DNA of 20,000 nt from contig JAADGS010000040.1 in the NCBI GenBank assembly GCA_013152275.1, forward strand, positions 50,487 to 70,486. Reading direction: 5' to 3'. The notes beneath the pieces were generated by a model that was not told the DNA's origin, did not search any database, and was given only the letters and a program-made list of their open reading frames with translations. Positions within the stretch are counted from its first letter, which is position 1. Each line of letters opens with the position of its first letter. A program made the position numbers and the translations under genes. Below are positions 3,908 to 18,848 of this stretch, piece after piece. This DNA comes from Actinomycetota bacterium. Lineage in GTDB: Bacteria; Actinomycetota; Acidimicrobiia; Spongiisociales; UBA4744.

Positions 3908-5202
3908 ACTGGTTCGACGACTACAGATCGAAGCTGCAGACTCCGCACCAGGCAGTCTTCCAGATCCAGAGCGGCGACCGTGTCTACTACGGAGGGAACG
4001 CGGCGATCCCGTGGGCACTGGTCAGGGCGCTCGCAGAACGAGGCGAAGAACTCTCCGACGTCCAACTCAATCACGTTCTCCTCGTTGGCGACGATCCCCT
4101 CTCCGATCCGGCGATGGCCGATCATTTCCGTCACAACTCGCTCTTTGTGGGACCGGCGGATCGGGCTGCGGTGAACGAAGGACGCGCAGACTACGTTCCC
4201 ATCTTCCTGCACCAGATTCCGCGCCTGTTCAAAGAGAACATCATTCCCCTGGATGTCGCAATGTTGATGGTGTCCCCGCCGGACGAGCACGGCTTCATGA
4301 GCCTCGGCGTCGAGACGCTCGCCTCCCAGGCCGCCTACCAGTCGGCCAAGAAGGTGATCGTCCAGGTGAACACGAAGATGCCGCGCATTCTCGGCGACTC
4401 GTTCCTCCACGTGAGCAGGGTCGACACGATCGTCGAGCACACCGAGGCGTTGCCCAACCTGATACCGAAACCGGCCACAGAGGTCGAACGCAAGATCGCG
4501 GCGCACGTACTCGAGCTCATTCCGCCGCGTTCGACGGTGCAGATGGGCATTGGCGGCATCCCAGACTCGGTGTACGAGTCGATGGAAGGCGATCTACAGC
4601 TTGGGATCCACACCGAGATGCTGTCGGACGGAGCCATGCGCGCCATCGAACGCGGCGTCGTCACCGGGGCATACAAGTCGCTCCATCCCGGGAAGGTCGT
4701 GATCACGTTCGCGATGGGAAGCGACGATCTCTACGAGTTCCTCGACAACAATCCGCTCATCGAGGCACACCCCGTCGACCACACGAACGATCCGTTTGTC
4801 GTTTCCCAGAACGACAACATGGTCGCGATCAACTCTGCGATCGAGCTGGATCTGACCGGACAAGTCTGTTCCGACTCGATCGGCCCATACATCTACTCGG
4901 GGTTCGGCGGGCAGGTCGACTTCATTCGCGGTGCGGCGAAGTCCAAAGGCGGCCGACCCATCATCGCGCTTCCCGCAACCGCCAAGGGCGGAACGCTCTC
5001 TCGCATCGTCCCGTTCCTGAAGCAGGGCGCCGGTGTGGTCACCAGCCGTGCCGATGTTCACTACGTCGTCACCGAATACGGCGTCGCCAACCTGTTCGGC
5101 ATGAATCTCCGGGAACGGGCAGAGGCGCTGATCGAGATCGCCGCCCCTCAGTTTCACGAGGAGCTGGAGGCCGCTGCGAAGGAACGCAAGCTGCTGCCGT
5201 GA
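3904..5202 (+). CDS. Acetyl-CoA hydrolase/transferase family (4-hydroxybutyrate CoA-transferase-like)
   Basis: QMGIGGIP, GIHTEM (catalytic Glu), NSAIELDLTGQV, SGFGGQVDF and VVTEYG motifs. ATGA overlap with the ald stop. Confidence 0.92.
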   Translation: MNWFDDYRSKLQTPHQAVFQIQSGDRVYYGGNAAIPWALVRALAERGEELSDVQLNHVLLVGDDPLSDPAMADHFRHNSLFVGPADRAAVNEGRADYVPIFLHQIPRLFKENIIPLDVAMLMVSPPDEHGFMSLGVETLASQAAYQSAKKVIVQVNTKMPRILGDSFLHVSRVDTIVEHTEALPNLIPKPATEVERKIAAHVLELIPPRSTVQMGIGGIPDSVYESMEGDLQLGIHTEMLSDGAMRAIERGVVTGAYKSLHPGKVVITFAMGSDDLYEFLDNNPLIEAHPVDHTNDPFVVSQNDNMVAINSAIELDLTGQVCSDSIGPYIYSGFGGQVDFIRGAAKSKGGRPIIALPATAKGGTLSRIVPFLKQGAGVVTSRADVHYVVTEYGVANLFGMNLRERAEALIEIAAPQFHEELEAAAKERKLLP

Positions 5203-5212
5203 GACTCTCTGC

Positions 5213-5256
5213 CGGTACCCGGGGATGGCGAACGGATTCATCTCGAGCAGGTGCCG
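5213..5256 (+). terminator. Imperfect stem-loop downstream of the CoA transferase (possible terminator or stability hairpin)
   Basis: CGGTACC 5213-19 pairs with GGTGCCG 5250-56 and GGGATG 5222-27 with CATCTC 5239-44. No U-tract. Confidence 0.3.
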
Positions 5257-5300
5257 ACATCGACCAGAGCGTGGTCCACCCCAGGAGAGGACCGAGCGAG

Positions 5301-5306
5301 TAGCGT
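5301..5306 (+). promoter_or_regulatory. Putative -10 element for leaderless lutA
   Basis: TAGCGT lies 7 nt before ATG 5314, with no SD in between. Confidence 0.5.
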
Positions 5307-5313
5307 CCTGTCC

Positions 5314-6039
5314 ATGGCCACCGTGCAGCTCTTCGTCACGTGCCTCGTCGATGCGTTCGCGCCGCAGGTTGGAGAAGCCGTCGTGGACCTTCTCGAGCGA
5401 CTTGGACTGACCGTCGAGTTTCCCTTCGGACAGACGTGCTGTGGTCAGCCTGCGTTCAATGCCGGTTTCCGTGACGAAGCCCGGCGTATGGCCGTGCACA
5501 CACTCGAGGTGCTCGACGCCACCGAAGGCATGATCGTGCTGCCATCGGGGTCGTGTGCGGACATGGTCATCCGCCACATCCCCGATCTCGTCGCCGACGA
5601 CCCCGACCTCTCCGAGGCGGCTCAGAGGGTCGCGGCCAGGACGCGTGAGTTCACCTCGTTCCTGGTCGACGACCTCGACGTGACCGATGTGGAGGCCACC
5701 GGCGCCGGCTCCTGCACGCTACACCACTCCTGCCATGGCCTGCGGAACCTCGGCGTGAAGTCACAGCCTGAACGGCTCCTCGACAACGTCCAGGGAATGG
5801 ATCGGGTGGAACTCGCGGACGCGACCGAGTGCTGTGGCTTCGGAGGCCTGTTCGCTCTCGAGATGCCCGACGTATCTATCGCGATGCTCGACAGGAAGCT
5901 CGACAACATCGAGGCAAGCGGTGCCGACACGATCGTCGGAGGCGACATCTCGTGTCTCCTGCACATTGCAGGAGGTCTGCACCGGCGAGGGAGCTCCATC
6001 GAGGTTCGCCACATCGCCGAGATCCTCGCCAAACGATGA
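5314..6039 (+). CDS. lutA: L-lactate utilization protein LutA/YkgE (CCG Fe-S domain)
   Basis: VQLFVTCLVD, QTCCGQPAFNAG, SGSC, HHSCH, ECCGFGG and DISCLLHI. Start taken at ATG 5314. Confidence 0.92.
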   Translation: MATVQLFVTCLVDAFAPQVGEAVVDLLERLGLTVEFPFGQTCCGQPAFNAGFRDEARRMAVHTLEVLDATEGMIVLPSGSCADMVIRHIPDLVADDPDLSEAAQRVAARTREFTSFLVDDLDVTDVEATGAGSCTLHHSCHGLRNLGVKSQPERLLDNVQGMDRVELADATECCGFGGLFALEMPDVSIAMLDRKLDNIEASGADTIVGGDISCLLHIAGGLHRRGSSIEVRHIAEILAKR

Positions 6040-7424
6040 CCTCCTTCCTCGAACGAGCGCGCTCGGACATCGGCACTCCCCCGATTGCCGCGCTGCAGAT
6101 CGGCGCGCGACGATTCTCCGACCATCGCGCGCACGCCGTCGAGGCATTCCCGCCGATGGACGACATGCGAGATCGCGCTCGAGCAATCCGCCTCCACACG
6201 CTCGCGAATCTGGATCGGTATCTGGCCCAGTTCGCAGATGCTCTCGAAGGGGTGGGAGGGCACGTGTTCTTCGCCGCGGATGCCCACGAAGCCAACGAGT
6301 ACGTCGTACAACTTGCGCACGCCCGAAACGTGGAGCGGATCGTCAAGTCCAAATCCATGCTCACCGAGGAGCTGCACCTCAACGACGCCCTCGAAGCCGA
6401 GGGGATGGAGGTCGTCGAAACCGATCTCGGAGAGTTGATCGTGCAGCTCGCGAACGACCGCCCATCACACATCATCGCCCCGGTCCTCCACAAGACCCGC
6501 TTCGAGATCGGCACGCTGTTCGAAGAGAAGCTTGGCGTCCCGTACACAGATGATCCGATCCAACTGAACACGATTGCCCGCCGCCATCTCCGTCCCCTGT
6601 TCCTCACCGCGGACATGGGGATCAGCGGCGTGAACATCGCTGTCGCGCAGACCGGTTCCATCTGCATCGTCACGAACGAAGGCAACGGTCGCCTCACCAC
6701 CACGGCGCCCAGAATCCACGTTGCGATGTTGGGTGCGGAACGCCTCGTCCCATCGATCGGGGACATGTCCGTCATCCTGGAGGTACTCGCCCGCAGCGCG
6801 ACAGGCCAGAAGCTGAGCGTCTACACGAACGTCCTCACCGGCCCTCGCCGCCCCGGTGAACCGGACGGCCCGGACGAACTCCATGTCGTGATCGTCGACA
6901 ACGGGCGCTCGAAGGTCCTGGCGGGTCCAAGCTCCGAGATCCTGGCCTGCATCCGCTGCGGAGCGTGCCTCAACGTCTGTCCCGTGTACCGGACCGTCGG
7001 CGGGCACGCCTACGGCAGCACCTATCCGGGACCCGTCGGATCGGTGCTCACCCCGGCACTGTTCGACCTCGACGAATGGTCGGATCTGCCGTACGCGTCC
7101 ACGCTCTGCGGAGCATGCCTGGAAGTATGTCCCGTTCGTATCGACATTCCCCGACTCCTGCTCGATCAGCGCAACCTGTCCGTGCAGACGCGAACCGGAC
7201 CCATGTGGATGCGACGCCCGCTGCGTGCCTACGCAGGTGCAGCGACGCACCCGGGCCGCTTTCGCGCGCTGCTGCGTGCCGGTGCCGTCATCGGTCGTCT
7301 GTTCCGCACCGGATGGATCCGCCGGCTTCCCTGGCGAGGAGCCGCATGGACCCGGGGCAGGGATCTGCAGGCACCAGTCAAGTCGTTTCATCGACGCTGG
7401 AAGGAGCGCAACCGTGGATCGTGA
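6036..7424 (+). CDS. lutB: L-lactate utilization Fe-S protein LutB/YkgF
   Basis: VKSKSMLTEE, ETDLGE, PSHIIAP, TNEGNGR, plus two ferredoxin motifs CIRCGACLNVCP and TLCGACLEVCP. ATGA overlap with lutA. Confidence 0.95.
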   Translation: MTSFLERARSDIGTPPIAALQIGARRFSDHRAHAVEAFPPMDDMRDRARAIRLHTLANLDRYLAQFADALEGVGGHVFFAADAHEANEYVVQLAHARNVERIVKSKSMLTEELHLNDALEAEGMEVVETDLGELIVQLANDRPSHIIAPVLHKTRFEIGTLFEEKLGVPYTDDPIQLNTIARRHLRPLFLTADMGISGVNIAVAQTGSICIVTNEGNGRLTTTAPRIHVAMLGAERLVPSIGDMSVILEVLARSATGQKLSVYTNVLTGPRRPGEPDGPDELHVVIVDNGRSKVLAGPSSEILACIRCGACLNVCPVYRTVGGHAYGSTYPGPVGSVLTPALFDLDEWSDLPYASTLCGACLEVCPVRIDIPRLLLDQRNLSVQTRTGPMWMRRPLRAYAGAATHPGRFRALLRAGAVIGRLFRTGWIRRLPWRGAAWTRGRDLQAPVKSFHRRWKERNRGS

Positions 7425-8067
7425 CGCGTTCTTGGCTCGGATCCGGTCGGCGTCGGCGTCCCTGTCGGCCTCTTCCGACCCGGGGATTCTCGTCCCCGAG
7501 CAGCCCCCCGGTGATCTCGTAACCCGCTTCTGCCGTGAGCTCGAAGCCGTCGACGGGGTGCCCCACCGTGCTGTGGATACGGATGATGCCCTCCGCATCG
7601 TCCTCGAGCTGATGGAAGGACACCGTTGGTTCATGGCCCGTGGGCCACTGCCGGTGCCCGGCCTTGCCGGCCGCCTGATTCATGACGGCTATCGGATCAT
7701 GAACAGCGATGTGCCACCTGACCCGGCGGCGCGTATCGAGCACCAGCTCGCCTACAAGACACTCGAGGTCGGGATCACCGCGGCGGACGCCGCTCTGGCC
7801 GAGTCGGGGTCGATCGTCGTCACGTCGGGACGCGAATCACCGCGGATGGCGTCCCTGATCCCGGAGACCCACATCGCTCTGGTCCGCACCGATCAGATCT
7901 ATCCGTCGCTCAGTCACTTCCTCGCCGAACGCTCCGAGGTGGCGACCCGGTCGAGCAACATGGTCGTGATCACCGGGCCGAGCCGCACCGGCGACATCGA
8001 GCAGACCCTGACGCTGGGTGTGCACGGTCCGCGCCAGGTCCACGTCGTCCTCATCCCGTTCTCGTGA
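7414..8067 (+). CDS. lutC: Lactate utilization protein LutC/YkgG (LUD domain)
   Basis: GTG start after AAGGAG; AESGSIV, RMASLIP.THIA and ITGPSRTGDIEQTLTLGVHGP. Confidence 0.92.
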   Translation: MDRDAFLARIRSASASLSASSDPGILVPEQPPGDLVTRFCRELEAVDGVPHRAVDTDDALRIVLELMEGHRWFMARGPLPVPGLAGRLIHDGYRIMNSDVPPDPAARIEHQLAYKTLEVGITAADAALAESGSIVVTSGRESPRMASLIPETHIALVRTDQIYPSLSHFLAERSEVATRSSNMVVITGPSRTGDIEQTLTLGVHGPRQVHVVLIPFS

Positions 8068-8108: not shown

Positions 8109-9765
8109 AGGCAGTCCAGTCTTTCACCAATCGATCCAGCGTCGTGAGTGGCATCATGCCCGAGTCCAGAACGGTGTCGTGGAATCCCTTGACGTCAAAG
8201 CTCTCACCAAGGGCCGCCTCTGCCTCGCTCCGCATCCGCTGGATCTCCAGACGTCCGATCATGTAGGCGAGCGCCTGACCCGGCAAGCCGATGTAGCGAT
8301 CGACCTCGTTCTCGATCGTGCCGATCGACATCGGGGAGTTCTCGGCGAAGAAGTCGATCGCCTGCCGGCGGCTCCACCCTTTCGCGTGCAGGCCGGTGTC
8401 GACGACCAGCCGACCGGCGCGCATCGAGTCGGCCGAGAGCATGCCGATGCGCTCGAGGGGCCCCGAGTACAAGCCCATCTCGTCGGCAAGACGTTCGGTG
8501 TACAGGCCCCAGCCTTCGGCGTAGGCCGTGACGCCTGCGTGCTTTCGAAAGTCGGGGATTCCTTCGAGTTCCTGAGCGATCGCCAACTGAAGATGGTGGC
8601 CCGGGATCCCCTCGTGATACGCCATCGCCTCGATCTCATAACGGCCCCAGTGTGTCGGATCGGACGTGTTGACGAAGAACATGCCGGGTCGAGATCCGTC
8701 GGTGGCCGGCGGGAAATAGAACGCGGTCGGCCCGCTCGGTGTTTCGGCAACGATGCAGTCGGCCTTCGGAAGACGTCCGAACCAGTCCCCGATCGCGGCA
8801 TTGGCCTTTGCGAGCGCACGCTCCGAAGCGGCGACGACTTCCGGGCCTGCCACAAAGTGCAGATCCGGATCCTCGCGTAGACGTGTGAAGATCTCGCTGA
8901 GATCGTCGGTGCCGAGAGCCTCCTTACCGAGCTTTCGATACTCGCCGGCCAACCGCTCGACCTGGTCGAGACCGATGTCATGGATCTCATCGGCCTTCAA
9001 CCGCAGCGTCGTGTGCTGATGAATCGCCTTCGCGTAGAGTTCGTCGCCGCCAGGTACCCAGGACACGCCGCTTCGCTCCTGCGGCCTGGCGAACGGCAAG
9101 ACCTCGTTCGCGATCGTGTCTCGATACCGTTGCAGCGATGGCCGGATCGCGTCACGAACGACGGTGGCGAGACGCTCCTTCCACGCTTCGGTTGCCGACG
9201 TGTCGAAGGATTCCGGGACCCGTACATGCAGAAATGGATTCTCTTCCATCGGCAACGCGAGCAGCGCGTCGAGCTGCCCGACCGTCTTCTCGCTCGTCAG
9301 CGCAGGCGGTGTCCTGCCATCGACAAGCCCTTCGCGCAGGCGCTCGCCCATCTCATCGAACACTCGAGCGAATCCTCGGTACTTCTCGACCAACGCCTCG
9401 GCATGCTCGGACTCCTCGATGGGCAACTGGGGGATCAGCACGGGGATCATCGCCTGCAAACCCATGGCGTGGTTGACCGCGAACTCTGCCGCCCTCGTCT
9501 CGAGGGCATCGGCCCCGGTGGAGGCTTCGAAGATCAGCACATCCCTGGTGATTCGTTCGTCCTTGTCGAGACCTGCCTGATCGATCGCCTCGGCCCGTCC
9601 TGCGAAGTCCCGAAGCCGGGCGATCTGGGCGTCCTCGGCCTCTCTCGACACTTCCTCGACCTTCTCGTCGAACCGGTGATCTCCGAGCATCATGGCGTGC
9701 GTCGGGTTGGTCTCCATCGTGTAGTCCCAGTACTCGTCGCCGAGCCTGCGCAGTTCCTCGTTCAC
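8080..9765 (-). CDS. DUF885 family protein (putative metallopeptidase-like)
   Basis: YHEGIPGHHLQ, AYAEGWGLYTE, RLVVDTGLH, EVDRYI..PGQALAY..G and FHD.VL motifs. No signal peptide apparent. Confidence 0.92.
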   Translation of the reverse strand: MNEELRRLGDEYWDYTMETNPTHAMMLGDHRFDEKVEEVSREAEDAQIARLRDFAGRAEAIDQAGLDKDERITRDVLIFEASTGADALETRAAEFAVNHAMGLQAMIPVLIPQLPIEESEHAEALVEKYRGFARVFDEMGERLREGLVDGRTPPALTSEKTVGQLDALLALPMEENPFLHVRVPESFDTSATEAWKERLATVVRDAIRPSLQRYRDTIANEVLPFARPQERSGVSWVPGGDELYAKAIHQHTTLRLKADEIHDIGLDQVERLAGEYRKLGKEALGTDDLSEIFTRLREDPDLHFVAGPEVVAASERALAKANAAIGDWFGRLPKADCIVAETPSGPTAFYFPPATDGSRPGMFFVNTSDPTHWGRYEIEAMAYHEGIPGHHLQLAIAQELEGIPDFRKHAGVTAYAEGWGLYTERLADEMGLYSGPLERIGMLSADSMRAGRLVVDTGLHAKGWSRRQAIDFFAENSPMSIGTIENEVDRYIGLPGQALAYMIGRLEIQRMRSEAEAALGESFDVKGFHDTVLDSGMMPLTTLDRLVKDWTASVLVTLRGN

Positions 9766-9860
9766 CGTCCAGCCTTTCGTCGCAGCAGATCACTCATCTT
9801 GACCCACCGTGGGTACAACGTCGAATCTGGAGAAACGCCTGGCACCGCTCCCCCGTGCCG

Positions 9861-9884
9861 TGATACAATATGACTGACTGGTCA
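9861..9884 (+). promoter_or_regulatory. Extended -10 promoter with an overlapping palindromic TetR-type operator
   Basis: TGaTACAAT at 9861-9869, followed by TGACTGACTGGTCA at 9871-9884 (TGAC...GTCA dyad) over the expected TSS. GGAG RBS at 9893-9896. Confidence 0.65.
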
Positions 9885-9900
9885 CCCACATTGGAGCGTC

Positions 9901-10515
9901 ATGGGTCGAATCACCGCCGAGGCGAAGCTCGAGGTCCGCAACCGACTCCTCGCCACGGCTGCAGAGCACTTTGCCCGCGACGGCCTCGAGCGAACGAGTA
10001 TCGACGCCATCGCGTCCGGAGCGGGCGTCGCCAAGGGAACCGTCTACAACTACTTCCGATCCAAGGACGAGCTTTTTGCCGAGGTCATCGCGGAGGGTGC
10101 ACGACGCGCGGTACAGCGATACGAAGCCAATCCGGCGGCGGGATCGACCAGGGACCGGCTCCGGGGACTGGCCGAAGCAGACGTGCAGGTCGTGCGGGAA
10201 CAGGAGCCTTTCCAGCAGGTCGTGATCAGGGAAGCCCTGGCGTTTCGACCTGAAACCTATCCCCTCGTCATCAGGCATCTCGCCCCGTTTGTCGGCGCCG
10301 TGGCACATGTCCTCGACGAAGGTGTGTCCGCAGACGAGGTGCGCGCAGATCGGCCCACTGCCGAACTCGCCCTGGCTTTTGTCGGCATCCTCGGCATCCT
10401 GTATGTACAACACTGGGGCTCCGGCGGCACGTGGCCGAAACTCGACGAGATCCCCGACCTCGCGGTCCTGCTGTTCTTCGAGGGTGTCGGACGACGGCCA
10501 GGGAAGCAACGATGA
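9901..10515 (+). CDS. TetR/AcrR family transcriptional regulator
   Basis: HTH: AAEHFARDGLERTSIDAIASGAGVAKGTVYNYFRSKDELF. Confidence 0.95.
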   Translation: MGRITAEAKLEVRNRLLATAAEHFARDGLERTSIDAIASGAGVAKGTVYNYFRSKDELFAEVIAEGARRAVQRYEANPAAGSTRDRLRGLAEADVQVVREQEPFQQVVIREALAFRPETYPLVIRHLAPFVGAVAHVLDEGVSADEVRADRPTAELALAFVGILGILYVQHWGSGGTWPKLDEIPDLAVLLFFEGVGRRPGKQR

Positions 10516-11165
10516 GCACGTACGCGTTCATGCGCTGGCTCGAGTCGACACCGTCTCGCTACGACCGTGGCATGCACCTCTTGAGCAGGGGACGTATGTC
10601 CCGCGTCTACGACCGTGTTGCCGAACTGGCGGCAGGACCGGGGCTGCGCGTCCTCGATGTCGGCTGCGGAACCGGAGGGGTCACCCTGGCGTGCGCTGCA
10701 CGAGGAGCAGAGGCCGTCGGCCTCGACCGGGATGCCGGCATGCTCGAGGTCGCCGCAGCGAAACCGGCGCCTGCCGACGGAAGCGTCGAATGGGTGGAGT
10801 TGGGGGCGGCCGAGATCGAGGACCGATTCGATCCCGAAACGTTCGATAGCGTCGTGTCGTGTCTCGCCTTCAGCGAGATGTCCCCGCAAGAACGCGCCTA
10901 CGTGCTCGGGATCGTCCATGACCGACTTCGTCCGGGAGGCCGGCTGGTGATCGCAGACGAGGTCGAACCGACAGGCGCCGGCGCCCGTCTGCTCTACCGA
11001 TTGCTACGAATCCCCATGACCGTGGCGACCTGGTTGCTCACTCAGAAAACAACACATCCCGTGCACGGCCTCACCGACGCCGTGCGCCAAGCGGGTTTCG
11101 CGAACATCGACGAGGAACGTCCGTGGCCGGCCTTCGTCATCTTGAGTGCGAGGAGACCATCATGA
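10512..11165 (+). CDS. cpaM: Class I SAM-dependent methyltransferase, probably the corrinoid protein-associated methyltransferase family
   Basis: Motif I VLDVGCGTGG, GLD, FDSVVS and LRPGGRLVIAD. The N-terminus (M..LES.P.RYDRG..LLS.G) and the position beside an HgcAB-like gene fit the CpaM family as recalled, not searched. ATGA overlaps on both sides. Confidence 0.8.
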   Translation: MSTYAFMRWLESTPSRYDRGMHLLSRGRMSRVYDRVAELAAGPGLRVLDVGCGTGGVTLACAARGAEAVGLDRDAGMLEVAAAKPAPADGSVEWVELGAAEIEDRFDPETFDSVVSCLAFSEMSPQERAYVLGIVHDRLRPGGRLVIADEVEPTGAGARLLYRLLRIPMTVATWLLTQKTTHPVHGLTDAVRQAGFANIDEERPWPAFVILSARRPS

Positions 11166-12259
11166 AACTACTGGACTCCATATTCGACACGGCGTTCAGG
11201 TTCTTGCCACATCGCTCGAAGACGGGGCTCTTCCCGATCGGTGATCCCGACCGCTCCTCACCCGTCATCGTCACGGGCAACTACACCCTCACCGTGCGAC
11301 GCGTGTCCAAGGCGCTGCAGGGTGAGGACGTCTGGCTGCTCGTCACCGACAGCAGAGGCATCAACGTGTGGTGCGCTGCAGGAGGAGGCCATCTCACCCA
11401 TCATGACGTGATCGCCGCGGTTCGAACATCCCAAGTCGCAGACCGGGTCGACCATCAAGAGCTGATCCTGCCCCAGTTGAGCGCCACCGGGGTCGAGCGA
11501 AATCGTGTCGAGGAGGCGACCGGATGGCACGCGACGTGGGGACCGGTCCACGCGACGGACCTGCCTGCATTCCTGAGACGCGGCCGGCACGCCGTGAGGG
11601 AAGAGCGAGCCGTGCGCTTCCCGATGAGTGATCGCCTCCAGATGGCAGTGATGTGGACCGCCCCGATGGTGCCGATCCTGTGGTTGATCCTGTGGGCGAT
11701 CAGCGGACCGCTACCGGCGGTCGTCGGCGCGGTGGCCATCACGGCCATCGTGCTGGGACTCTTCGCAGGCATGCCGTGGCTGCCGCTGAGGACACACCGA
11801 GGGCTACTCGTCTATGGCGGCCTGGCCTTGGCCGGGTTCGCGTTCGGTGCTGCCCTCTTCACGGCCGCCGGGGCCCTGACGACGAGAAACCTCATCGTGC
11901 TCGCCGCCGCGTGTGTGGTCGGGACCGGGATCGTGTCGGTGGATGTCGCCGGGTCGACACCGCTGCTGTCGAGTTCGGTCAACCCGAGCGATTTCAGGGT
12001 CGAGTTGCTGGTCGACCGTTGCACCGGGGCTGCACAGTGCGTGCTCGTATGCCCGCGTGACGTGCTCGTCATGAACGGCCACGTCCACAAGGTCGAGATC
12101 GTCCGGCCCGCGAACTGCATCCTGTGTGGCGCCTGCATCGTCCAGTGCCCCGAAGATGCCCTCCGCTTCCGGTTCGACGACGGGAGGGTCGTCGAGCCGG
12201 CGACGATACGCAGAACACGCCTCAATCTGCTGGGCAAACGCACCATCGACGTGACCTAG
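11162..12259 (+). CDS. Fused HgcAB-like protein: corrinoid-binding (CdhD/HgcA-like) domain + ~4 TM helices + dicluster ferredoxin
   Basis: GL..IG.P...SPVIVTGNYTLT, WLLV.DS.GINVWCAAGGG, LILPQL.ATGV and WGPV.A.DLP.FL, all typical of HgcA. Then four hydrophobic segments, then CTGAAQCVLVCP and CILCGACIVQCP. Start ATG 11162 after GAGGAG; 365 aa. Confidence 0.88.
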   Translation: MKLLDSIFDTAFRFLPHRSKTGLFPIGDPDRSSPVIVTGNYTLTVRRVSKALQGEDVWLLVTDSRGINVWCAAGGGHLTHHDVIAAVRTSQVADRVDHQELILPQLSATGVERNRVEEATGWHATWGPVHATDLPAFLRRGRHAVREERAVRFPMSDRLQMAVMWTAPMVPILWLILWAISGPLPAVVGAVAITAIVLGLFAGMPWLPLRTHRGLLVYGGLALAGFAFGAALFTAAGALTTRNLIVLAAACVVGTGIVSVDVAGSTPLLSSSVNPSDFRVELLVDRCTGAAQCVLVCPRDVLVMNGHVHKVEIVRPANCILCGACIVQCPEDALRFRFDDGRVVEPATIRRTRLNLLGKRTIDVT

Positions 12260-12261
12260 TG

Positions 12262-13074
12262 TCACGCGAGCAGCAGCTTCTCCAGCCTCCGCGCCGCAAC
12301 CACGATGCCAACCGCACCCATCACGACCAGGAACCCGATGTGGTAGAGCATGGTCCATTCGAAGATCCCGAGCGTAAGCGAACGAATCAGCACGACACCG
12401 TGATAGAGCGGCGACAGTTGCGCCGCCCATCGCAGCCACTCGGGATACACGCTGAGCGGGTAGAACGTCGCCGAGAACAGAAACAGGGGAAGCGTGACGA
12501 GTTGCACGAGATCGAAGTCCTGCCAGGATCGCATGAACGACGTGGCCGCCATGCCTGCTGCAGCGAATCCGAAACCGAGCAGGAGCGCCGCAGGGACGGC
12601 GAGCAGCCCCCACAGCGACGGCATCAGGCCCATGATCCACATCACGACGAGGAACCCCGTCGCATACAGCGCTCCTCGAAACAGCGACCACGTGATCTCT
12701 CCGATGGCAATGTCGCCGGGCGCCATCGGAGTCGCCAGCACAGCGTCGTAGATCTTCGCGTACTTGAGCTTGAAGAAGATGTTGAACGTCGATTCGTAGA
12801 CGGCACCGTTCATGGCCGCCGCACCGAGGAGCGCGGGCGCCACGAACGCCGCATAGGAGATCGGTTCCCCGGTGGGTCCCACGACATCACCGACGAGTTT
12901 GCCGAGTCCGATACCGATGGAGAAGAGATAGAAGAGCGGTTCGAAGAATCCGGAGAAGATGACGATCCATGCGTGCCGGTACACGAGGAAGTTCCGTTCG
13001 AGAAGATGTCGTGCCCGCCGACTGCCCATCGCCGACGGCGGCACGATCCTGGCCATGAGGGTCCCGGTGGTCAT
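12262..13074 (-). CDS. ABC-2 type exporter permease (NodJ-like)
   Basis: SGFFEPLFYLFSIGIGLG, Y.AFVAPALL, YDAVLATP, PLFLFSATFYP and SPLYHGV. Real start ATG 13074 (ATGA overlap). Confidence 0.9.
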   Translation of the reverse strand: MTTGTLMARIVPPSAMGSRRARHLLERNFLVYRHAWIVIFSGFFEPLFYLFSIGIGLGKLVGDVVGPTGEPISYAAFVAPALLGAAAMNGAVYESTFNIFFKLKYAKIYDAVLATPMAPGDIAIGEITWSLFRGALYATGFLVVMWIMGLMPSLWGLLAVPAALLLGFGFAAAGMAATSFMRSWQDFDLVQLVTLPLFLFSATFYPLSVYPEWLRWAAQLSPLYHGVVLIRSLTLGIFEWTMLYHIGFLVVMGAVGIVVAARRLEKLLLA

Positions 13075-13844
13075 TGCCCCAACTTCTTCGTGAACGTGTG
13101 GATCGCCACGAGCGTGCCTCCGACGATCCACGCGAGAAGGTATGCCACATGTACGAACGGCGAGAAGGTCGTGGCCAGACCGAGGGTCGTTGCGCGAGTC
13201 AGCTCGACGCCATGCCACAGCGGCACGGCGTAGGCGAGCGGCTGCATCCAGCCGGGAAGCTGTGTGATCGGAAAGAACGTCCCGGAGAACAGGAACATGG
13301 GGACGATCCCGAACCGGAAGAGGTTGCTCAATCCGGTGTCGCGCTTCAACCATGCCGCGTAGCCGCTGACCGGTGCGGCGAATGCCAGCCCGGTCAGCAC
13401 CGCGGGGAACACTGCCAGCAATCCCACACCGACGGCCACGGCTCCGAAAGCGGCCATGACGAGGACGAACACGGTCGACACGAAGATCATACGAATGCCG
13501 ACCCAACCGAGATGACCGATGACGAGGTCCGGGATCCTGATCGGCGTGGCCAGCGTGGCGAAGTACGTCTTGGTCCACTTGATGCCCGCCATGACCGGCC
13601 ACGACCCGTCGCCTGCGCCCGTCTGCATGGCGGCCGCCGCGAGCAGCCCGGGAGCGAGGTAGGCCAGGTAGGGAATGCCGATCGACGCGCTCCCGGCGCC
13701 ACGGTTCACGAGCGTGCCGAGACCAACCCCCATGCCCAGCAGATACAGGACCGGACTGAGGAAGGTCGAGATGACACTTCCCCGCCATGTGCGGCGGTAC
13801 ACCCGGGCGTGCGCCTCGACGACACGGATCGCAGCCGCAGCCAT
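13071..13844 (-). CDS. ABC-2 type exporter permease
   Basis: PVLYLLGMGVGLG, YLAYLAPGLLA, ATLATP, PMFLFSGTFFP and PLWHGVEL. Confidence 0.9.
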   Translation of the reverse strand: MAAAAIRVVEAHARVYRRTWRGSVISTFLSPVLYLLGMGVGLGTLVNRGAGSASIGIPYLAYLAPGLLAAAAMQTGAGDGSWPVMAGIKWTKTYFATLATPIRIPDLVIGHLGWVGIRMIFVSTVFVLVMAAFGAVAVGVGLLAVFPAVLTGLAFAAPVSGYAAWLKRDTGLSNLFRFGIVPMFLFSGTFFPITQLPGWMQPLAYAVPLWHGVELTRATTLGLATTFSPFVHVAYLLAWIVGGTLVAIHTFTKKLGQ

Positions 13845-14770
13845 CAGTCGATCAGGCTCCGGCCGGTGAGACGCAGGAATACGTCTTCGAGCGTGCTGCG
13901 GCGAACCACCACCGTTTCGGGTTTCAGCCCGCGCTCGGCCACCTCGGCGGCGGTCCGATCGCCGTCGACCGTGTACAGGAGCACGCTGTCGGGAAGGACC
14001 TCGGTCCGTTGCGAGAGTCCCTCGAGGAGCGGCAGCGCCTCCTCTTGACCGCCCACCGGGAATCGCAGTTCCACGACGTCACGTGTCGAGTGCGTTTCGA
14101 TGAGTTCGCGCGGCGAGCCCTCTGCAACGATCTTCGCCTTGTCCATCACGACGAGGCGGTCGCACAGTTGCTCCGCCTCGTCCATGTAGTGGGTCGTGAT
14201 GATGAGGGTCACCCCTCGTTGCTTGAGCCGGTAGAGCCTGTCCCAAAGCGCATGACGGGCCTGCGGATCGAGGCCGGTGGTCGGCTCGTCCAGCAGGAGC
14301 ACATCGGGCTTGTTGATGAGTGCCCGGGCGATCGTCAAGCGCCGCTTCATCCCGCCGGAGAGATTCTCGACCTGGGCGTCGCGCCGTTCTGTGAGTTGGG
14401 CGAACTCGAGCAGTTCGTCCGCCCGGTCGGTGATCACCGATCGGGGCAGGTCGAAGTACCGCCCGTAGACCAACAGGTTCTCGAAGACCGACAGCTCGTT
14501 ATCGAGATTGTCTTCTTGGGGGACCACCCCGAGACGCGCCCGAATGAGCGGCCCCTGCGTGGCAGGGTCCATATCGAGAACTCTCAGCGTTCCTTCGGTG
14601 ACCGGCGACACGGCGCCGATCATGCGCATGGTGGAGGTCTTGCCTGCGCCATTCGGTCCAAGGAACCCGAACGCCTCGCCGTACTCGACGGCGAAGTCGA
14701 CGCCGTCGACCGCGGTGAAGTCGCCGAAACGTTTGGTGAGCGCGCGTGCGAATACGAGGGGTTCGGCCAT
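13844..14770 (-). CDS. ABC exporter ATP-binding protein (NodI/DrrA-like)
   Basis: Walker A GPNGAGKT, signature LSGGM, Walker B LLLDEPTTGLDP and H-loop TTHYMDEAE. Start likely ATG 14770. Confidence 0.95.
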   Translation of the reverse strand: MAEPLVFARALTKRFGDFTAVDGVDFAVEYGEAFGFLGPNGAGKTSTMRMIGAVSPVTEGTLRVLDMDPATQGPLIRARLGVVPQEDNLDNELSVFENLLVYGRYFDLPRSVITDRADELLEFAQLTERRDAQVENLSGGMKRRLTIARALINKPDVLLLDEPTTGLDPQARHALWDRLYRLKQRGVTLIITTHYMDEAEQLCDRLVVMDKAKIVAEGSPRELIETHSTRDVVELRFPVGGQEEALPLLEGLSQRTEVLPDSVLLYTVDGDRTAAEVAERGLKPETVVVRRSTLEDVFLRLTGRSLID

Positions 14771-14797
14771 GGGATAGGCATCGTAGCTCCCCCCGAA

Positions 14798-14850
14798 CCG
14801 TTCTCGTGACGCTTCGACGGAATAGTCCGTGCGAGGTGTCACGAGAACGG
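14798..14850. repeat. 53-bp REP-like palindromic element, copy 2 (downstream of the LLM gene)
   Basis: 13-bp perfect arms CCGTTCTCGTGAC and GTCACGAGAACGG, plus an inner stem ACGGA-atag-TCCGT. Confidence 0.85.
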
Positions 14851-14871: not shown

Positions 14872-15876
14872 CTACCGCAGCGCCGGAATGATCTCCCGCC
14901 CGTACGCTTCCAGGGTCTCCTCCTGGGCGTCGTGCATGAGGTAGATGGCGAACTGATCAACGCCTCTGTCGCGCAGGTCGGTCAGTTTGGCGATATGGTC
15001 GGCCACAGAACCCAACACGCAGAACCGGTCGACGATGGCATCGGGCACAAACTCGGCCGAGGGATTCCGCTTCTTGCCATGGTGCCGGTAGTCATAGCCC
15101 TGCCGGTCCTTGATGTAGTCGGTCAGAGCCGTCGGGACCGCAATCCCACCACCGCCGTAGCGGGCGACGAGGTCCTCGACGTGGTTGCCGACCATGGCCC
15201 CGAACCAGCGCAGCTCCTCCCTCTGATGGGCGAGGTCGTCACCGACATAGGCTGGAGCGGCCACGCAGACCTGGACGGAGCCCGGATCGCGCCCGGCCTG
15301 CCGAGCGGCGTCCCTCACCACTCCCATCGTCCATTCGAGGATCTTGGGATCGGCCAGCTGCAGAATGAATCCGTCGGCTTCCCGACCGATGAGATCCAGA
15401 GCTTTCGGGCCGTAGCCGGCCACCCACATCGGCAGGTCCCAGCCTTCCTCGCCGACCCACGGGATCCGCAGTTCCACCCCCCGGTACATGACCGACTCAC
15501 CGGCCACCAGACCCTTGATGACCTGCATGGACTCCGAGATCGTCGCCAGTGTCATCGGTTTACGACCGATGACTCGCAGCGCCGAGTCGCCCCGTCCCAT
15601 ACCGCAGATGGTGCGACCCCCCGACATGTCGTTGAGGGTGGCGAACAGCGAGGCGAGCACCGTCCAGTCGCGGCTACCCGGGTTGGTGACCATCGGCCCG
15701 ACGACCACGTGCTCGGTGGCCGCCAGCATCCGGCTGAAGATCACGAACGGCTCTTGCCAGAGGATGTGAGAATCGAATGTCCACACATGGGAAAACCCGT
15801 TCTGCTCGGCCAGCTTGGTCAGCTCGACGACTCGCGACGCCGGCGGATCGGTCTGCAGTACGACTCCGAAATCCAT
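14872..15876 (-). CDS. LLM-class, probably F420-dependent oxidoreductase (TIGR03842-like, pyrimidine-cluster associated)
   Basis: MDFGVVLQTDPPA, WTFDSHILWQEP, GPMVTNP, GRGDSA and ADGFILQLADP. Adjacent to hydA. Confidence 0.88.
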   Translation of the reverse strand: MDFGVVLQTDPPASRVVELTKLAEQNGFSHVWTFDSHILWQEPFVIFSRMLAATEHVVVGPMVTNPGSRDWTVLASLFATLNDMSGGRTICGMGRGDSALRVIGRKPMTLATISESMQVIKGLVAGESVMYRGVELRIPWVGEEGWDLPMWVAGYGPKALDLIGREADGFILQLADPKILEWTMGVVRDAARQAGRDPGSVQVCVAAPAYVGDDLAHQREELRWFGAMVGNHVEDLVARYGGGGIAVPTALTDYIKDRQGYDYRHHGKKRNPSAEFVPDAIVDRFCVLGSVADHIAKLTDLRDRGVDQFAIYLMHDAQEETLEAYGREIIPALR

Positions 15877-15926
15877 TTCCCTCACCCTGCCTTGCTCTCG
15901 TTGTGGAACGGTGGCCGATTCCCGCC

Positions 15927-16084
15927 CACGTGTGTTGCGGGAACCCCAGATCGGCTTCGCCGACAGCGTCGAACGGTGTCTGTGCGGACACCACTCCCGC
16001 GACCGGATCGCGCCTGTTCACCCGCCGTTCGGCTCACCCGATCACCCGCCTGTTGCTGATCCGGTGTTCGATGGGTTCCACGTG
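15927..16084 (-). other. Intergenic multi-branched secondary structure (candidate structured RNA or palindromic element)
   Basis: Nested complementary blocks 15940-46/16073-79, 15969-74/16066-71 and 16002-09/16058-65, plus side hairpins at 15951-63 and 15975-92. Confidence 0.5.
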
Positions 16085-16091
16085 CATCGCC

Positions 16092-17519
16092 TCAGATGAG
16101 CAACTGGTTCGTGCCGCGCTTGAGATACCGCCCGTCGCCCTTGGTTCCCACGTACCTGCCGCCTTTGACGATCACCTTGCCACGAGAAAGCACCTGGTCG
16201 ATCGTGGCGTTGATCTCCATGCCTTCGTAGCACGTGTAGTCGATGTTCCCGTGAATGGTGCCGGGCGCCGAGTACGTGAAGGATGTATGGGGGTCGTACA
16301 CGACGATGTCGGCGTCCGACCCGACGGCGATCGTCCCCTTGCGTGGATACATCCCGAACATCTTGGCCGGCGTGGTGGCGACGAGGTCCACCCAACGATT
16401 GATGTCGAAGCGGCCCCCAACCACGCCGCTTTGGTACATCACGTTGAATCGCTCCTCGACGCCGGGGAGGCCGTTCGGGATGAGCGTGAAGTTGCCCTCC
16501 CCCAACCGCTTCTGACGACCCAACGTCTCGTCGTCGTCGTAGAAGAAACAGGCGTGGTCGGTGGACACGACCTGGAGGTCTCCACGGGCAAGGGCGTTCC
16601 ACAGGTACTCCTGATGACCCTCCTCCTTGAAGCGGATGGGCGGCGAGCAGACGTACTTGGCGCCCTCGAAACCGGGCAGGGAGACATGATCTTCGACGGA
16701 CAGGTGGAGATACTGCGGACACGTCTCCCCAAACACGTTGAGACCGAGATCTCGAGCCTTCGTGAGCTCGGCGACCCCCTCCTTACAGGACATGTGGACG
16801 ACGTAGAGAGGCGCACCGGCCAATTCCGCCAGGGCGATGGCACGATGCACCGCCTCGGACTCGGTCGCGGGTGGGCGTGTGATGGAATGGTATTTGGGGT
16901 CGGTCTCGCCCCGTTCGAGAGCCTGCTCCCTCAGCACATCGATGGCAATGCCGTTCTCGGCATGCATCATGATCGTCGTGCCGTCCCTGGCGGCCCGTTG
17001 CATCGCGCGGAAGATCTCCCCGTCGTCGGAGTAGAGGACGCCGGGGTACGCCATGAACAGCTTGAAGCTGGTGACGCCTTCGTTGACGATCGCCCCCATC
17101 TCCTCGAGGGAGACATCGTTGATGTCGCCGACGATCATGTGGAATCCGTAGTCGATGGCGCAGTTCCCTTCGGCTTTCTGCATCCACTTCTCGAAGCCGT
17201 CTCTGACCGACTCGCCCTTGACCTGAACGGCGAAGTCCACGACGGTGGTCGTGCCTCCGAACGCGGCCGCGCGAGTACCGGTTTCGAAGTTGTCGGACAC
17301 GTAGGTCCCACCGAAGGGAAGCTCGAAATGCGTGTGGACGTCGACACCCCCCGGCACGACATACTTGCCCGAGGCGTCGATCACCGTATCAACGCCCTCC
17401 TGCCAGTGATGCCTCCCCGGCGCGGCCATCGCGACGACCTTTTCGTCCTCGATGAGCACGTCCGCCGGGATCGTCTCGGTCGAGGTGACGACCGTGCCGT
17501 TGATGATGGCGATTCTCAT
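16092..17519 (-). CDS. hydA: Dihydropyrimidinase (D-hydantoinase)
   Basis: PGGVDVHTH, GGTTT, SFKLFMAY (carbamylated Lys), HAENG, VVHMS, GETCPQYL, STDH and IPNGLPGVE. Confidence 0.96.
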   Translation of the reverse strand: MRIAIINGTVVTSTETIPADVLIEDEKVVAMAAPGRHHWQEGVDTVIDASGKYVVPGGVDVHTHFELPFGGTYVSDNFETGTRAAAFGGTTTVVDFAVQVKGESVRDGFEKWMQKAEGNCAIDYGFHMIVGDINDVSLEEMGAIVNEGVTSFKLFMAYPGVLYSDDGEIFRAMQRAARDGTTIMMHAENGIAIDVLREQALERGETDPKYHSITRPPATESEAVHRAIALAELAGAPLYVVHMSCKEGVAELTKARDLGLNVFGETCPQYLHLSVEDHVSLPGFEGAKYVCSPPIRFKEEGHQEYLWNALARGDLQVVSTDHACFFYDDDETLGRQKRLGEGNFTLIPNGLPGVEERFNVMYQSGVVGGRFDINRWVDLVATTPAKMFGMYPRKGTIAVGSDADIVVYDPHTSFTYSAPGTIHGNIDYTCYEGMEINATIDQVLSRGKVIVKGGRYVGTKGDGRYLKRGTNQLLI

Positions 17520-18832
17520 CAGTTGTCTCCTCTCTCGAAGAGGGATGCGGTCGTGGCAACCGCGTCGCTCAGTACGTCAAAGCCCTCGTCGGCCTCCTCC
17601 TCTGTCAAGGAGAGAGGCGGCGCGATACGCAGGACGTTGCCGAACAGGCCGCCCTTGCCGATCAGCAGGCCTCCTGCCCGAGCTTCCTCCATGATGTGTG
17701 ATGCTGCCCCCGGGTGTGGATCCGTCCCGCCGGGACGAACGAGTTCCACGCCGATCATGAGGCCCTTCCCCCGTACCTCGCCGATGATCTCGTAGCCGTC
17801 GGCCAGGTGATCGATACGGGACCGCAGATGTTGGCCCACCTTCAGGGCGTTGGTCTGCAAGTCATGTTCCAACAGGTAGTTCAGGTTGGCCAGCGCCCCC
17901 GTCGTGGCGAGCGGGTTCCCCCCGAACGTCGAAATCGAGTTGGCATTCAGACAGTCCATGATCTCGGCTCGCGCGATCACTCCGCCGATGGCCAGCCCGT
18001 TTCCGACGCCCTTCGCGAAGGTGATCATGTCGGGAATGATGCCGTGTGCCTGGTAGCCCCAGAAGTTCTCGCCGGTCCGCCCCCATCCTGTCTGGACCTC
18101 GTCGGAGATGAAGAGAATCCCGTGCCGGTCCAGTTCGTCCTTCATCGCTCCGAAGAACCCATCCGGTGGCGTGACAAAACCGCCCACACCCTGGATCGGC
18201 TCGGCGATCATGCATGCCACATCCCCGGAGGTGGCAACGTTCAGCAGATCGCGCAGGTCGGCCACGCAGGCGGCAGTGAACGCTTCGTCCGGAAGGTGAC
18301 CGAAGGGGCTTCGATACCGATAGCCGCTGTGCACGTACGTCACGTTGAGAGGACCGAGGCTGGTCGGCGACCAGGACCGGTTGCCGGTGAGTGAAACGGC
18401 CGCGAACGAGCGGCCGTGATAACTGTTGCGGAGCGCCAGCACCTCGTTGGAGCGTCGGTAGGTGGTGGCCAGCAGCATGGCCGTGTCGTTGGCTTCGGTC
18501 CCCGAGTTCGTGAAGAAGACCTTGGCGTCGGGAATCCCCGACAGCTCGGCCAGCTTCTCGGCCAACTCGATCTGAGGCTCGATGAGGTAGAGCGTCGACG
18601 TGTGCAGGATGCGTCCCGCCTGCTCCCGGATCGCCTCGACCACCTCCGGCACGTTGTGGCCGGTCATGGTCGTGAGGATGCCGCCGAAGAAGTCGAGGTA
18701 TTCCTTGCCTTCGGCGTCCCATACCCGCCGGCCTTGTCCCCTCACCAGAGCGATGGGCTGCTCGTAGTAGAGGGCCAGCCAGGATGGGAGCACCCGGTTG
18801 TGTCGTGCATGGAGTTCTCGTTGCGTGCCCAT
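17519..18832 (-). CDS. Class-III PLP aminotransferase (beta-alanine/AGXT2-like)
   Basis: YLDFFGGI, NSGTEAND, SYHG, AEPIQGVGG, ISDEVQTGWGRTG, TFAKG (PLP Lys) and STFGGNP. Start ATG 18832 after GAGAGGA; TGATG overlap with hydA. Confidence 0.92.
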   Translation of the reverse strand: MGTQRELHARHNRVLPSWLALYYEQPIALVRGQGRRVWDAEGKEYLDFFGGILTTMTGHNVPEVVEAIREQAGRILHTSTLYLIEPQIELAEKLAELSGIPDAKVFFTNSGTEANDTAMLLATTYRRSNEVLALRNSYHGRSFAAVSLTGNRSWSPTSLGPLNVTYVHSGYRYRSPFGHLPDEAFTAACVADLRDLLNVATSGDVACMIAEPIQGVGGFVTPPDGFFGAMKDELDRHGILFISDEVQTGWGRTGENFWGYQAHGIIPDMITFAKGVGNGLAIGGVIARAEIMDCLNANSISTFGGNPLATTGALANLNYLLEHDLQTNALKVGQHLRSRIDHLADGYEIIGEVRGKGLMIGVELVRPGGTDPHPGAASHIMEEARAGGLLIGKGGLFGNVLRIAPPLSLTEEEADEGFDVLSDAVATTASLFERGDN

Positions 18833-18848
18833 GGGTCCTCTCGATCGG

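Follow-up and report, generated by a model that had tools for sequence, protein, structure and literature searches.

The 20,000-nucleotide stretch of DNA analysed here (the window; positions 50,487 to 70,486 of contig JAADGS010000040.1 from an Actinomycetota bacterium) contains three consecutive genes on the forward strand. They encode a TetR-family repressor (tetR), a class I S-adenosylmethionine (SAM)-dependent methyltransferase (cpaM) and a fusion protein that combines an HgcA-like corrinoid domain, membrane helices and a ferredoxin (the HgcAB-like gene, or gene 3). The three open reading frames (ORFs) are present as an initial annotation of the sequence had described them, linked by ATGA stop/start overlaps at 10512-15 and 11162-65, and the unit is a real operon (Table 1). 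A chance arrangement or shadow ORFs were rejected as its origin. A recent insertion was ruled out by a GC content of 0.64-0.66, like that of the flanks, and by the presence of the operon at the same site in three genera.

The leader of the operon contains an extended -10 promoter element, and similar elements occur at the matching place in three related loci (L001, L002 and L004; L and G numbers are our handles for loci and genomes). A consensus promoter scanner that requires a -35 element returned 0 promoters and 0 terminators in 9600-12500. The initial annotation had a dyad overlapping this shared promoter; the -10 element is readily visible, but the dyad is a 20-bp palindrome that abuts it and covers the likely transcription start region, outside the -10 hexamer. 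An exact-repeat search of the leader missed this predicted operator, which was revealed by a comparison of relatives and has the family consensus ATGGGTGAC-YR-GTCACCCAT. A matrix built from 24 sites preceding related tetR genes, this one included (training range 20.5-35.7 bits), scores it at 28.1 bits, the single match within the window and the top match in the 3.07-Mb host genome. The next genomic matches score 19.2, 17.3 and 13.2 bits, under all 24 training sites, and the TetR regulon thus looks like this one operon. From the conservation of the operator we infer, in agreement with the initial annotation, that TetR autoregulates its own operon.

Gene 2 encodes CpaM, the "corrinoid protein-associated methyltransferase" of NCBIfam, with a score of 271.1 bits against NF043040 (cut-off 180) and an ATGA overlap with an HgcA-like corrinoid gene. 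Its structure model (mean predicted local distance difference test score, pLDDT, 90) is that of a class I methyltransferase and includes a long amphipathic helix (residues 156-177). The top fold match is Coq5 (Z 22.2, root-mean-square deviation 2.6, 201 aligned residues), tied with CmoA, SpnL and BelI at about 22; the fold searches returned such tied class I methyltransferases only and indicated no substrate. With 1,711 protein clusters matching the Kosmotoga CpaM at E<=1e-60, the family is large, and several annotation sources label its members UbiE/MenG. A housekeeping UbiE/MenG identity was rejected for this protein (TIGR01934, 46.3 bits against a cut-off of 158.35), and a stronger UbiE-like gene (123.5 bits) is found elsewhere in the host genome. 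An ArsM arsenite methyltransferase identity was likewise rejected (NF008823, 25.1 bits against a cut-off of 263).

Gene 3 belongs to the HgcAB-like fusion family NF043039 (391.6 bits, cut-off 285, profile positions 3-350 of 350), with corrinoid domain, membrane domain and ferredoxin united in one chain, and the NCBIfam profiles thus bear out the identities first proposed for both enzymes. The CdhD/HgcA-type domain PF03599 spans residues 16-136, and the AlphaFold model (pLDDT 91) contains a Rossmann corrinoid domain, four long hydrophobic helices that agree with the approximate count given initially, and the ferredoxin. Foldseek matches include the deposited HgcA model 9a0b and the large subunit of CFeSP, the corrinoid iron-sulfur protein. 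Identity with that Wood-Ljungdahl subunit (AcsC/CdhE) was rejected, the NF003195 match being 83 bits against 306 and confined to profile positions 321-445. The HgcA-like cap helix is present as NVWCAAGGG, and its Cys71, the counterpart of Cys93 in HgcA of ND132, is the predicted cobalt ligand. Fold and motif agree in suggesting that gene 3 binds a cobamide through this helix.

The ferredoxin departs from the low-potential 8Fe dicluster first described. The second Cys of motif 1 is replaced, so this is not a standard 2x[4Fe-4S] dicluster. A Cys-to-Ala change in ferredoxin motif 1 would give a [3Fe-4S] cluster, and the gene 3 ferredoxin is probably of the 7Fe rather than the low-potential 8Fe type.

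Table 1. Features of the tetR-cpaM-HgcAB-like operon, in window coordinates.
Feature	Position	Strand	Remarks
Extended -10 promoter element TG-n-TACAAT (here TG-a-TACAAT)	9861..9869	+	Read from the sequence
Predicted TetR operator	9870..9889	.	20-bp imperfect palindrome, 16/20 positions matching; conserved before related tetR genes
Shine-Dalgarno-like GGAG before tetR	9893..9896	+	From the sequence
tetR, TetR-family repressor	9901..10515	+	204 aa, no Cys; PF00440 and TetR_C_24 matches
cpaM, class I SAM-dependent methyltransferase	10512..11165	+	217 aa counted from ATG
SAM motif DVGCGTG in CpaM	10656-10676	+	From the sequence
Shine-Dalgarno-like GAGGAG	11150..11155	+	Within the cpaM end, ahead of the coupled ATG of gene 3; from the sequence
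HgcAB-like fusion gene (gene 3)	11162..12259	+	365 aa from ATG; corrinoid domain, 4 membrane helices, ferredoxin, Cys-free tail
Cap helix NVWCAAGGG	11363..11389	+	Residues 68-76, Gly in place of the Lys of HgcA; from the sequence
Membrane domain, four helices	11624..11944	+	Residues 155-261, sequence poorly conserved; model and sequence
Ferredoxin motif 1 CTGAAQCVLVCP	12020..12055	+	Second Cys -> Ala, predicted [3Fe-4S]; from the sequence
Ferredoxin motif 2 CILCGACIVQCP	12116..12151	+	Intact [4Fe-4S] motif; from the sequence
C-terminal tail without cysteine	12152..12256	+	No counterpart of HgcB Cys73/Cys94/Cys95; from the sequence

A GTDB scan found at least 589 relatives of the gene 3 protein in many bacterial and archaeal phyla, of which we analysed the best 80. 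Canonical hgcA is under-sampled among these loci, since they were chosen by likeness to the gene 3 protein, and because kin are not independent the following counts describe a pattern and not a statistic. The cobalt-ligand motif NVWC is found in 80/80 loci. The cap Lys of HgcA (NVWCAAGK) occurs in six, none of which has an adjacent cpaM, while cpaM is adjacent or fused in 73 of the 74 loci without it, including 16 CpaM::corrinoid fusions. The sole non-Lys locus without cpaM (L093) comes from a genome with no CpaM match, and four genomes of the six canonical hgcA loci, searched whole, contain no CpaM over the cut-off. The ferredoxin could be read in 69 cpaM loci; motif 1 has no second Cys in 52 of these, and 64 have a Cys-free tail. 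A quick tree of the corrinoid domain places canonical HgcA (6 rows; SH-like approximate likelihood ratio test, SH-aLRT, 98) apart from the CpaM-linked group (83 rows, 95), with CpaM fusions at three places: in Chloroflexota, as a triple fusion in Desulfobacteraceae, and in Poribacteria. Atlas fusion clusters have 110 and 67 members. The Desulfobacteraceae proteins (L077:1409-3298 and L080:152-1927) are natural CpaM::corrinoid::membrane::ferredoxin fusions in one chain, which makes them good single-gene constructs for biochemistry or folding.

Closer to the host, cpaM and the HgcAB-like gene score over both cut-offs in the same 9 of 61 related genomes, all from the host's family, and the proposed co-conservation of methyltransferase and corrinoid gene thus holds at both scales. 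In six relatives with long flanks the pair lies between DUF885 and an ATP-binding cassette (ABC-2) exporter, and tetR is found in six of the nine genomes carrying the pair. CpaM exceeds its cut-off in 4/401 genomes of a phylum sample, host included. The module had been considered unusual in an actinobacterial setting. NCBIfam already names both genes and their association, and the family occurs in many phyla, with further members in other Actinomycetota (L023, L032, L033); such a setting is uncommon but not unique. Five of the relatives that have no copy of the module (L010-L014, from G011, G013, G019, G035 and G044) carry an AcsC-like corrinoid protein of ~450 aa, which suggests Wood-Ljungdahl genes in part of the host order.

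Neighbouring genes were scanned as 59 upstream and 53 downstream ORFs from the 80 loci, under a longest-ORF rule that sometimes picked shadow frames. No conserved third enzyme, substrate-binding protein or importer was found: beyond the module and TetR, no true family occurs in more than 8 of the 88 loci clustered. The module lies among ABC-2 exporter genes in four Chloroflexota loci (L040, L041, L054, L076), in two of which (L054, L076) it is followed by an F420 nitroreductase-family gene.

Homology to HgcA/HgcB and the invariant NVWC motif raise the question of whether gene 3 encodes a genuine mercury methylase whose two parts are fused and which CpaM assists. Gene 3 falls under the cut-offs for both HgcA (NF040863, 182.3 bits against 275) and HgcB (NF040864, 44.5 bits against 99), and canonical HgcA forms a separate clade in the quick tree. 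Fused-HgcAB organisms studied by Gilmour in 2018 reportedly yielded no methylmercury. The cap sequence NVWCAAGG departs from the high-stringency HgcA motif N[VI]WC[AS][AGS]GK, motif 1 of the ferredoxin lacks its second Cys, and motif 2 reads CILCGA rather than the C(M/I)ECGA of HgcB (motif definitions from 10.1101/2022.03.14.484253). HgcB cannot work without Cys73 and requires one terminal Cys to be fully active (PMC7305189); gene 3 has no Cys beyond residue 329 and no counterpart of Cys73, Cys94 or Cys95. Most HgcA proteins carry an N-terminal Cys-Sec or Cys-Cys extension (Haft preprint, 10.1101/2022.07.06.499078), and the 13 in-frame codons 5' of the gene 3 ATG, which is coupled to the cpaM stop, include one Cys and no CC/CU pair. 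Fused-HgcAB organisms that were tested formed no methylmercury (10.1101/2022.03.14.484253, PMC4646819), and the fused genes form a clade of their own with unconfirmed function (Lin 2023, PMC10083202). The P. furiosus negative was obtained in vivo, and its authors say that catalysis is not excluded (PMC4646819). Mercury methylation by this module is nonetheless unlikely: a fused mercury methylase assisted by CpaM would be a great surprise, and the plain mercury methylase against which the initial annotation had cautioned is probably not what gene 3 encodes. Loose searches could still miscount it as a methylator, since its NCBIfam HgcA score is 182 bits and its NVWC is intact. This affects mercury-risk surveys, for which gene 3 is HgcA-like in score yet lacks the HgcB cysteines.

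At L092:5281-7500 (Candidatus Poribacteria) an ArsR gene is followed by one for a CpaM::HgcA-like fusion, whose cap reads NVWCAAGEG, and by one for a separate ferredoxin in which the HgcB CMECGA motif and a Cys73-like residue are retained; in the quick tree the locus belongs neither to canonical HgcA nor to the main CpaM-linked group. This combination of CpaM, HgcA-like domain and HgcB-type ferredoxin counts in favour of mercury chemistry, and L092 is a possible intermediate and the family member most worth testing for mercury methylation.

Regulators of the ArsR type point to another explanation, in which the module methylates or handles soft metal(loid)s other than mercury (copper or silver stress, As, Sb, Se, Te, organometal cations) as a response to thiophilic-metal stress. 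ArsR genes directly precede L092 and L093, with related regulators near L087 and L094; ferredoxin tails at the ArsR-linked loci L087 and L094 contain 3-6 Cys; and DsbD or glutaredoxin-like genes flank L038, L041 and L087. One of these loci, L087, has two different cpaM-hgcAB-like pairs (607-2495 and 3861-5581) around thioredoxin-like and DsbD genes, and its first copy forms a small clade with L093 and L094 characterised by ArsR-like regulators and Cys-rich tails (CxCPTC). A lead from copper stress comes from P. furiosus, whose PF0729 is probably the fused HgcAB AAL80853; PF0728 was not found as a CpaM among the 120 matches listed of 1,711. AAL80853 is the fused HgcAB given for this organism by McDaniel 2020 (PMC7438021). 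After 20 uM Cu, log2 increases of 6.7, 5.0 and 3.4 are recorded for PF0727 (copZ), PF0728 ("SAM-dependent methyltransferase") and PF0729 ("Ferredoxin"), with PF0730 at log2 0.28, and the authors treat PF0729 as an antioxidant ferredoxin (PMC7830388). Canonical hgcAB is also under ArsR control (preprint 10.1101/2022.10.17.512643). The falling fold-change from PF0727 to PF0729 nevertheless fits read-through from copZ, the ArsR-linked, Cys-tailed loci are a separate small clade in the quick tree, TetR is Cys-free, and gene 3 has a single Cys outside its cofactor motifs, in a membrane helix. Metal(loid) handling is thus doubtful as the function of this locus; such chemistry seems alive for part of the family and less so for the Cys-poor, TetR-controlled branch.

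TetR control stands at this locus but is not a general trait of the family: tetR lies directly 5' of cpaM in 20 of the 73 cpaM loci (18 by Pfam, 2 by BLAST), with three operator types. Metagenomes were scanned with this TetR; among the best 80 of 498 loci, relatives of at least 53% identity have the module at 20/21 loci (19 with cpaM next, one with a cpaM remnant, one with neither), and it was seen with 0/59 relatives below 50%, where several contigs end near tetR. The remnant (L139:2457-2503) is a cpaM shrunk to ~15 codons between tetR and the corrinoid gene, by internal deletion or as an assembly artefact. The module-linked TetRs form one clade (23 rows, SH-aLRT 100), which is dedicated to the cpaM-hgcAB-like module. 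Conserved acidic and aromatic residues of the clade are D94, E102, E111, F104, Y120, F160, W172 and W178; it has no conserved Cys, and 7 of 20 close TetRs are Cys-free like this one. A sub-branch of the same clade (leaders of L007, L009, L028, L029, L035, L140, L144, L146 and L153) has a shorter-spaced operator, often in two tandem copies.

Sister TetRs share the same operator (13 inspected) and have other neighbours. Annotation of 55 proteins from their neighbourhoods, some of them shadow frames and some from GTDB loci, identified ABC transporters (a cluster of 32 loci, with the DrrAB-type L174 over the drrA cut-off), Rph/PigC-like phosphotransferases at 11 loci, Rox-like flavin monooxygenases, MmpL and one haloalkane-dehalogenase-like hydrolase (L154). 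These contexts suggest a theme, the efflux or inactivation of lipophilic compounds, and not one ligand. An Atlas search with the TetR ligand domain returned generic TetR clusters only. Many sister TetRs are followed by a ~144-aa conserved membrane protein (L182:1289-1720 and relatives, a 14-locus cluster) that has no Pfam or NCBIfam match and often faces a divergently transcribed gene for an Rph/PigC-like phosphotransferase.

The nearest solved TetRs are of the FadR/DarR/KstR2 types, which would fit a biosynthetic role in which the module acts as a tailoring system on an unactivated position of a membrane lipid, a quinone, an acyl-CoA or a secreted metabolite and TetR senses a pathway metabolite. 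The membrane location and the vertical inheritance at one site in three genera are also consistent with such tailoring. We consider it quite improbable, however, given the patchy occurrence among relatives and across the phylum, the lack of conserved pathway genes and the absence of a second operator site within the training range in the host genome.

The host (G000) is actinobacterial, as initially supposed, with 6 WhiB genes. Its genome encodes two cobalamin riboswitches, two BtuFCD-like transporters and cbiB/cobD/cobQ/cobA/cobU/cobT/cobS/cobC-like salvage genes, together with methylmalonyl-CoA mutase, two POR_N oxidoreductases, a glycyl-radical enzyme and cytochrome bd; neither COX1 nor the RACo activator was found in it. 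The salvage genes, POR_N enzymes and cytochrome bd, and the lack of COX1, indicate that the host is plausibly a low-oxygen organism able to supply cobamide and low-potential electrons. Elsewhere in this genome (G000:C97:5000-17600, L100), the glycyl-radical enzyme, of unassigned subfamily, and its activase lie directly upstream of a cobalamin riboswitch and a corrinoid uptake/salvage operon. Within the window, an ABC-2 exporter on the reverse strand (12262-14842; a NodI/DrrA-like ATPase and two permeases) is convergent on the operon, not co-transcribed with it, and conserved as its neighbour among close relatives. A probable pyrimidine degradation cluster follows on the same strand (14872-18892; a TIGR03842 F420-dependent luciferase-like monooxygenase (LLM) oxidoreductase, dihydropyrimidinase and class III aminotransferase). 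On the forward strand, 2777-8067 encodes an alanine dehydrogenase/PNT-like gene, an acyl-CoA:acetate CoA-transferase and a LutABC-type lactate oxidation set (CCG, Fe-S, LUD).

The missing RACo activator would suit a Co(I) dehalogenase or alkyl scavenger that acts on halomethanes or alkylating agents; the sole task of CpaM would then be to reactivate cobalt once oxidised, in the manner of the MetH reactivation domain. HgcAB is reported to dehalogenate halomethanes (preprint 10.64898/2026.04.26.720869), and the dehalogenase-like gene after one sister TetR (L154, under its cut-off) points the same way. DNA alkylation-repair genes lie directly downstream in the cpaM loci L044 (3262-3756, Ogt-like) and L063 (7201-7905, AlkD-like) and in the canonical hgcAB locus L084 (7238-8338, AlkA/Ogt). 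These neighbours are nonetheless sporadic (2 of the 53 downstream genes scanned and the one canonical locus), and methylating the cobalt would presumably block such a dehalogenase rather than restore it unless a methyl acceptor exists. We therefore regard this function as very improbable.

The reading that we favour, tentatively, is that the operon encodes an inducible, membrane-bound SAM-to-corrinoid methyl relay that modifies, and most likely detoxifies, a small, membrane-partitioning organic compound under low oxygen. The initial proposal of a methyl-transfer module was reasonable but unproven, and it survives here in modified form. TetR would occupy its operator over the start region and be released upon binding the compound, and the three coupled genes, as their overlaps indicate, are translated together. 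The fused ferredoxin, fed by pyruvate:ferredoxin oxidoreductase or a similar enzyme, would reduce a salvaged cobamide to Co(I). CpaM would then present SAM, and upon methylation of Co(I) the resulting methyl-Co(III) would be ligated by Cys71 as in HgcA. The methyl group would leave as a radical or carbanion equivalent to a membrane acceptor other than mercury, presumably one out of reach for a plain SAM methyltransferase, and the cobalt would be re-reduced. In purified HgcAB, SAM methylates Co(I) directly to give a methyl-Co(III)-thiolate, from which the methyl is proposed to depart as a radical or carbanion (PMC11588087). Since the cap Cys does not vary, a SAM enzyme almost always accompanies the corrinoid protein and fusions of CpaM to the corrinoid domain recur, a methyl-Co(III) intermediate with CpaM as loader is the most economical account. 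The relay chemistry itself (SAM to Cys-ligated corrinoid to acceptor) we consider fairly likely; granted the relay, a role in organic detoxification is a little less so, though still the better bet.

Several observations weigh against this reading. HgcAB takes SAM without a partner methyltransferase, with a dissociation constant of 33 uM (PMC11588087), so a CpaM loader is not chemically required. The CpaM fold is lidded like those of small-molecule methyltransferases (Coq5, CmoA, PmtA), and CpaM may therefore bind a substrate itself. Copper induces the probable P. furiosus pair, and some loci have an ArsR gene ahead of them. Of the 73 cpaM loci, 53 lack TetR, as do three of the nine close relatives, and the nearest solved DarR and FadR types are sensors of nucleotides or acyl-CoA. 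The Rph-, Rox- and dehalogenase-like neighbours of sister TetRs all score under their family cut-offs. Finally, the ligand domains of sister TetRs are 29-45% identical to this one, with D94->F, V95->C, V97->W and A112->C at pocket-like positions, so their ligands need not match.

The first two of these points lead to an explanation without methyl-cobalt, in which the corrinoid/ferredoxin protein is a membrane reductase that makes a nucleophile of a quinone, disulfide, nitro group or similar, and CpaM methylates this product straight from SAM and so traps it. The Coq5 match (tied as above) and the long amphipathic helix are consistent with it, since UbiE and Coq5 likewise methylate quinols and CpaM proteins are annotated UbiE/MenG by several sources. 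The probable [3Fe-4S] cluster would suit a reductase, and an F420 nitroreductase-family gene follows the module at two loci. To our knowledge, however, known cobamide reductases lack a cap-helix Cys-type ligand, and CpaM scores only 46 bits on the UbiE/MenG model in a genome with a better UbiE-like gene. HgcAB is reported to dechlorinate CCl4 reductively (preprint 10.64898/2026.04.26.720869), but in HgcA it is the methyl-Co(III) state that the cap-helix Cys, invariant here, ligates (PMC11588087). On balance we think reduction followed by methylation unlikely, although worth keeping in mind.

Returning to the methyl relay, a wider and rather speculative proposal is that CpaM and the HgcAB-like protein constitute a widespread, oxygen-independent resistance-type enzyme in which the methyl group of SAM, an electrophile, becomes nucleophilic or radical and serves to inactivate an electrophilic, lipophilic natural product, and that mercury methylation is derived. 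If so, exporters, Rph-like kinases and Rox-like oxygenases under sister TetRs would have their anaerobic counterpart in the module, and mercury methylation would have arisen through CpaM loss and the gain of thiol arms, with L092 a surviving intermediate. Why microbes keep hgcAB is puzzling because mercury methylation has no known benefit; the CpaM-linked sister family is large, and tests made on it sought methylmercury only. The present locus is a convenient test case, with three genes in a compact unit, a defined operator and a repressor dedicated to it. TetR is a direct handle on the substrate, and a reporter screen built on operator and repressor could name the inducer.

The CpaM/HgcAB-like pair is already catalogued, both families and their pairing being named in NCBIfam. 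A literature search, with subscription journals mostly outside its reach, found no paper assigning a function to the pair, and neither the phrase "corrinoid protein-associated methyltransferase" nor the name "CpaM" appeared among the papers listed, where PF0728-PF0730 occurred in the CopR paper and an unrelated one only. The main text of the Haft preprint (10.1101/2022.07.06.499078), whose supplements may bear on the matter, does not use "CpaM", "fusion", "fused" or "corrinoid". The present analysis contributes the operator, a TetR clade dedicated to the module along with the contexts of its sisters, the split between cap Lys and cpaM, L092 as a possible intermediate and the copper lead.

A comparison with known systems places the module closest to the fused HgcAB proteins of P. 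furiosus, Kosmotoga pacifica and Methanococcoides methylutens (Podar 2015, Lin 2023), which have the same order, coupling and domain layout; K. pacifica likewise has a protein named CpaM. The present system differs from that family in its dedicated TetR clade and defined operator, its actinobacterial host, and its membership of a sub-clade with a [3Fe-4S]-type motif 1 and a 35-residue Cys-free tail. HgcA and HgcB (NF040863, NF040864) share the CFeSP-type corrinoid domain with a cap-helix Cys, the membrane domain and the two-cluster ferredoxin, and plausibly the same half-reaction from SAM through Co(I) to a methyl-Co(III)-thiolate. Here, in contrast, one polypeptide carries these parts, with Gly for the cap Lys, the second Cys of motif 1 lost, no HgcB Cys73/94/95 and four predicted membrane helices where HgcA has five, alongside a near-obligate methyltransferase partner and a TetR instead of an ArsR. 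AcsC/CdhE with MeTr also pairs a corrinoid-binding Rossmann domain (~2 A root-mean-square deviation over ~130 residues) with a methyltransferase, but AcsC is soluble, has no Cys ligand and works with a methyltetrahydrofolate TIM-barrel methyltransferase in the Wood-Ljungdahl pathway, whereas the present module is anchored in the membrane and its methyltransferase is a class I SAM enzyme. UbiE/MenG/Coq5 resemble CpaM in fold (the top tied match), in a YD motif near the N-terminus and in the amphipathic helix, yet CpaM reaches 46 of the 158 bits called for, is 17% identical, and has conserved FSE, ADE and TQxTT motifs and a link to a corrinoid protein. In the SAM-dependent reactivation domain of MetH and in TsrM-type B12 SAM methylases, SAM makes a methylcobalamin intermediate; the module described here has no radical-SAM domain, is membrane-bound and is predicted to have a Cys-ligated corrinoid.

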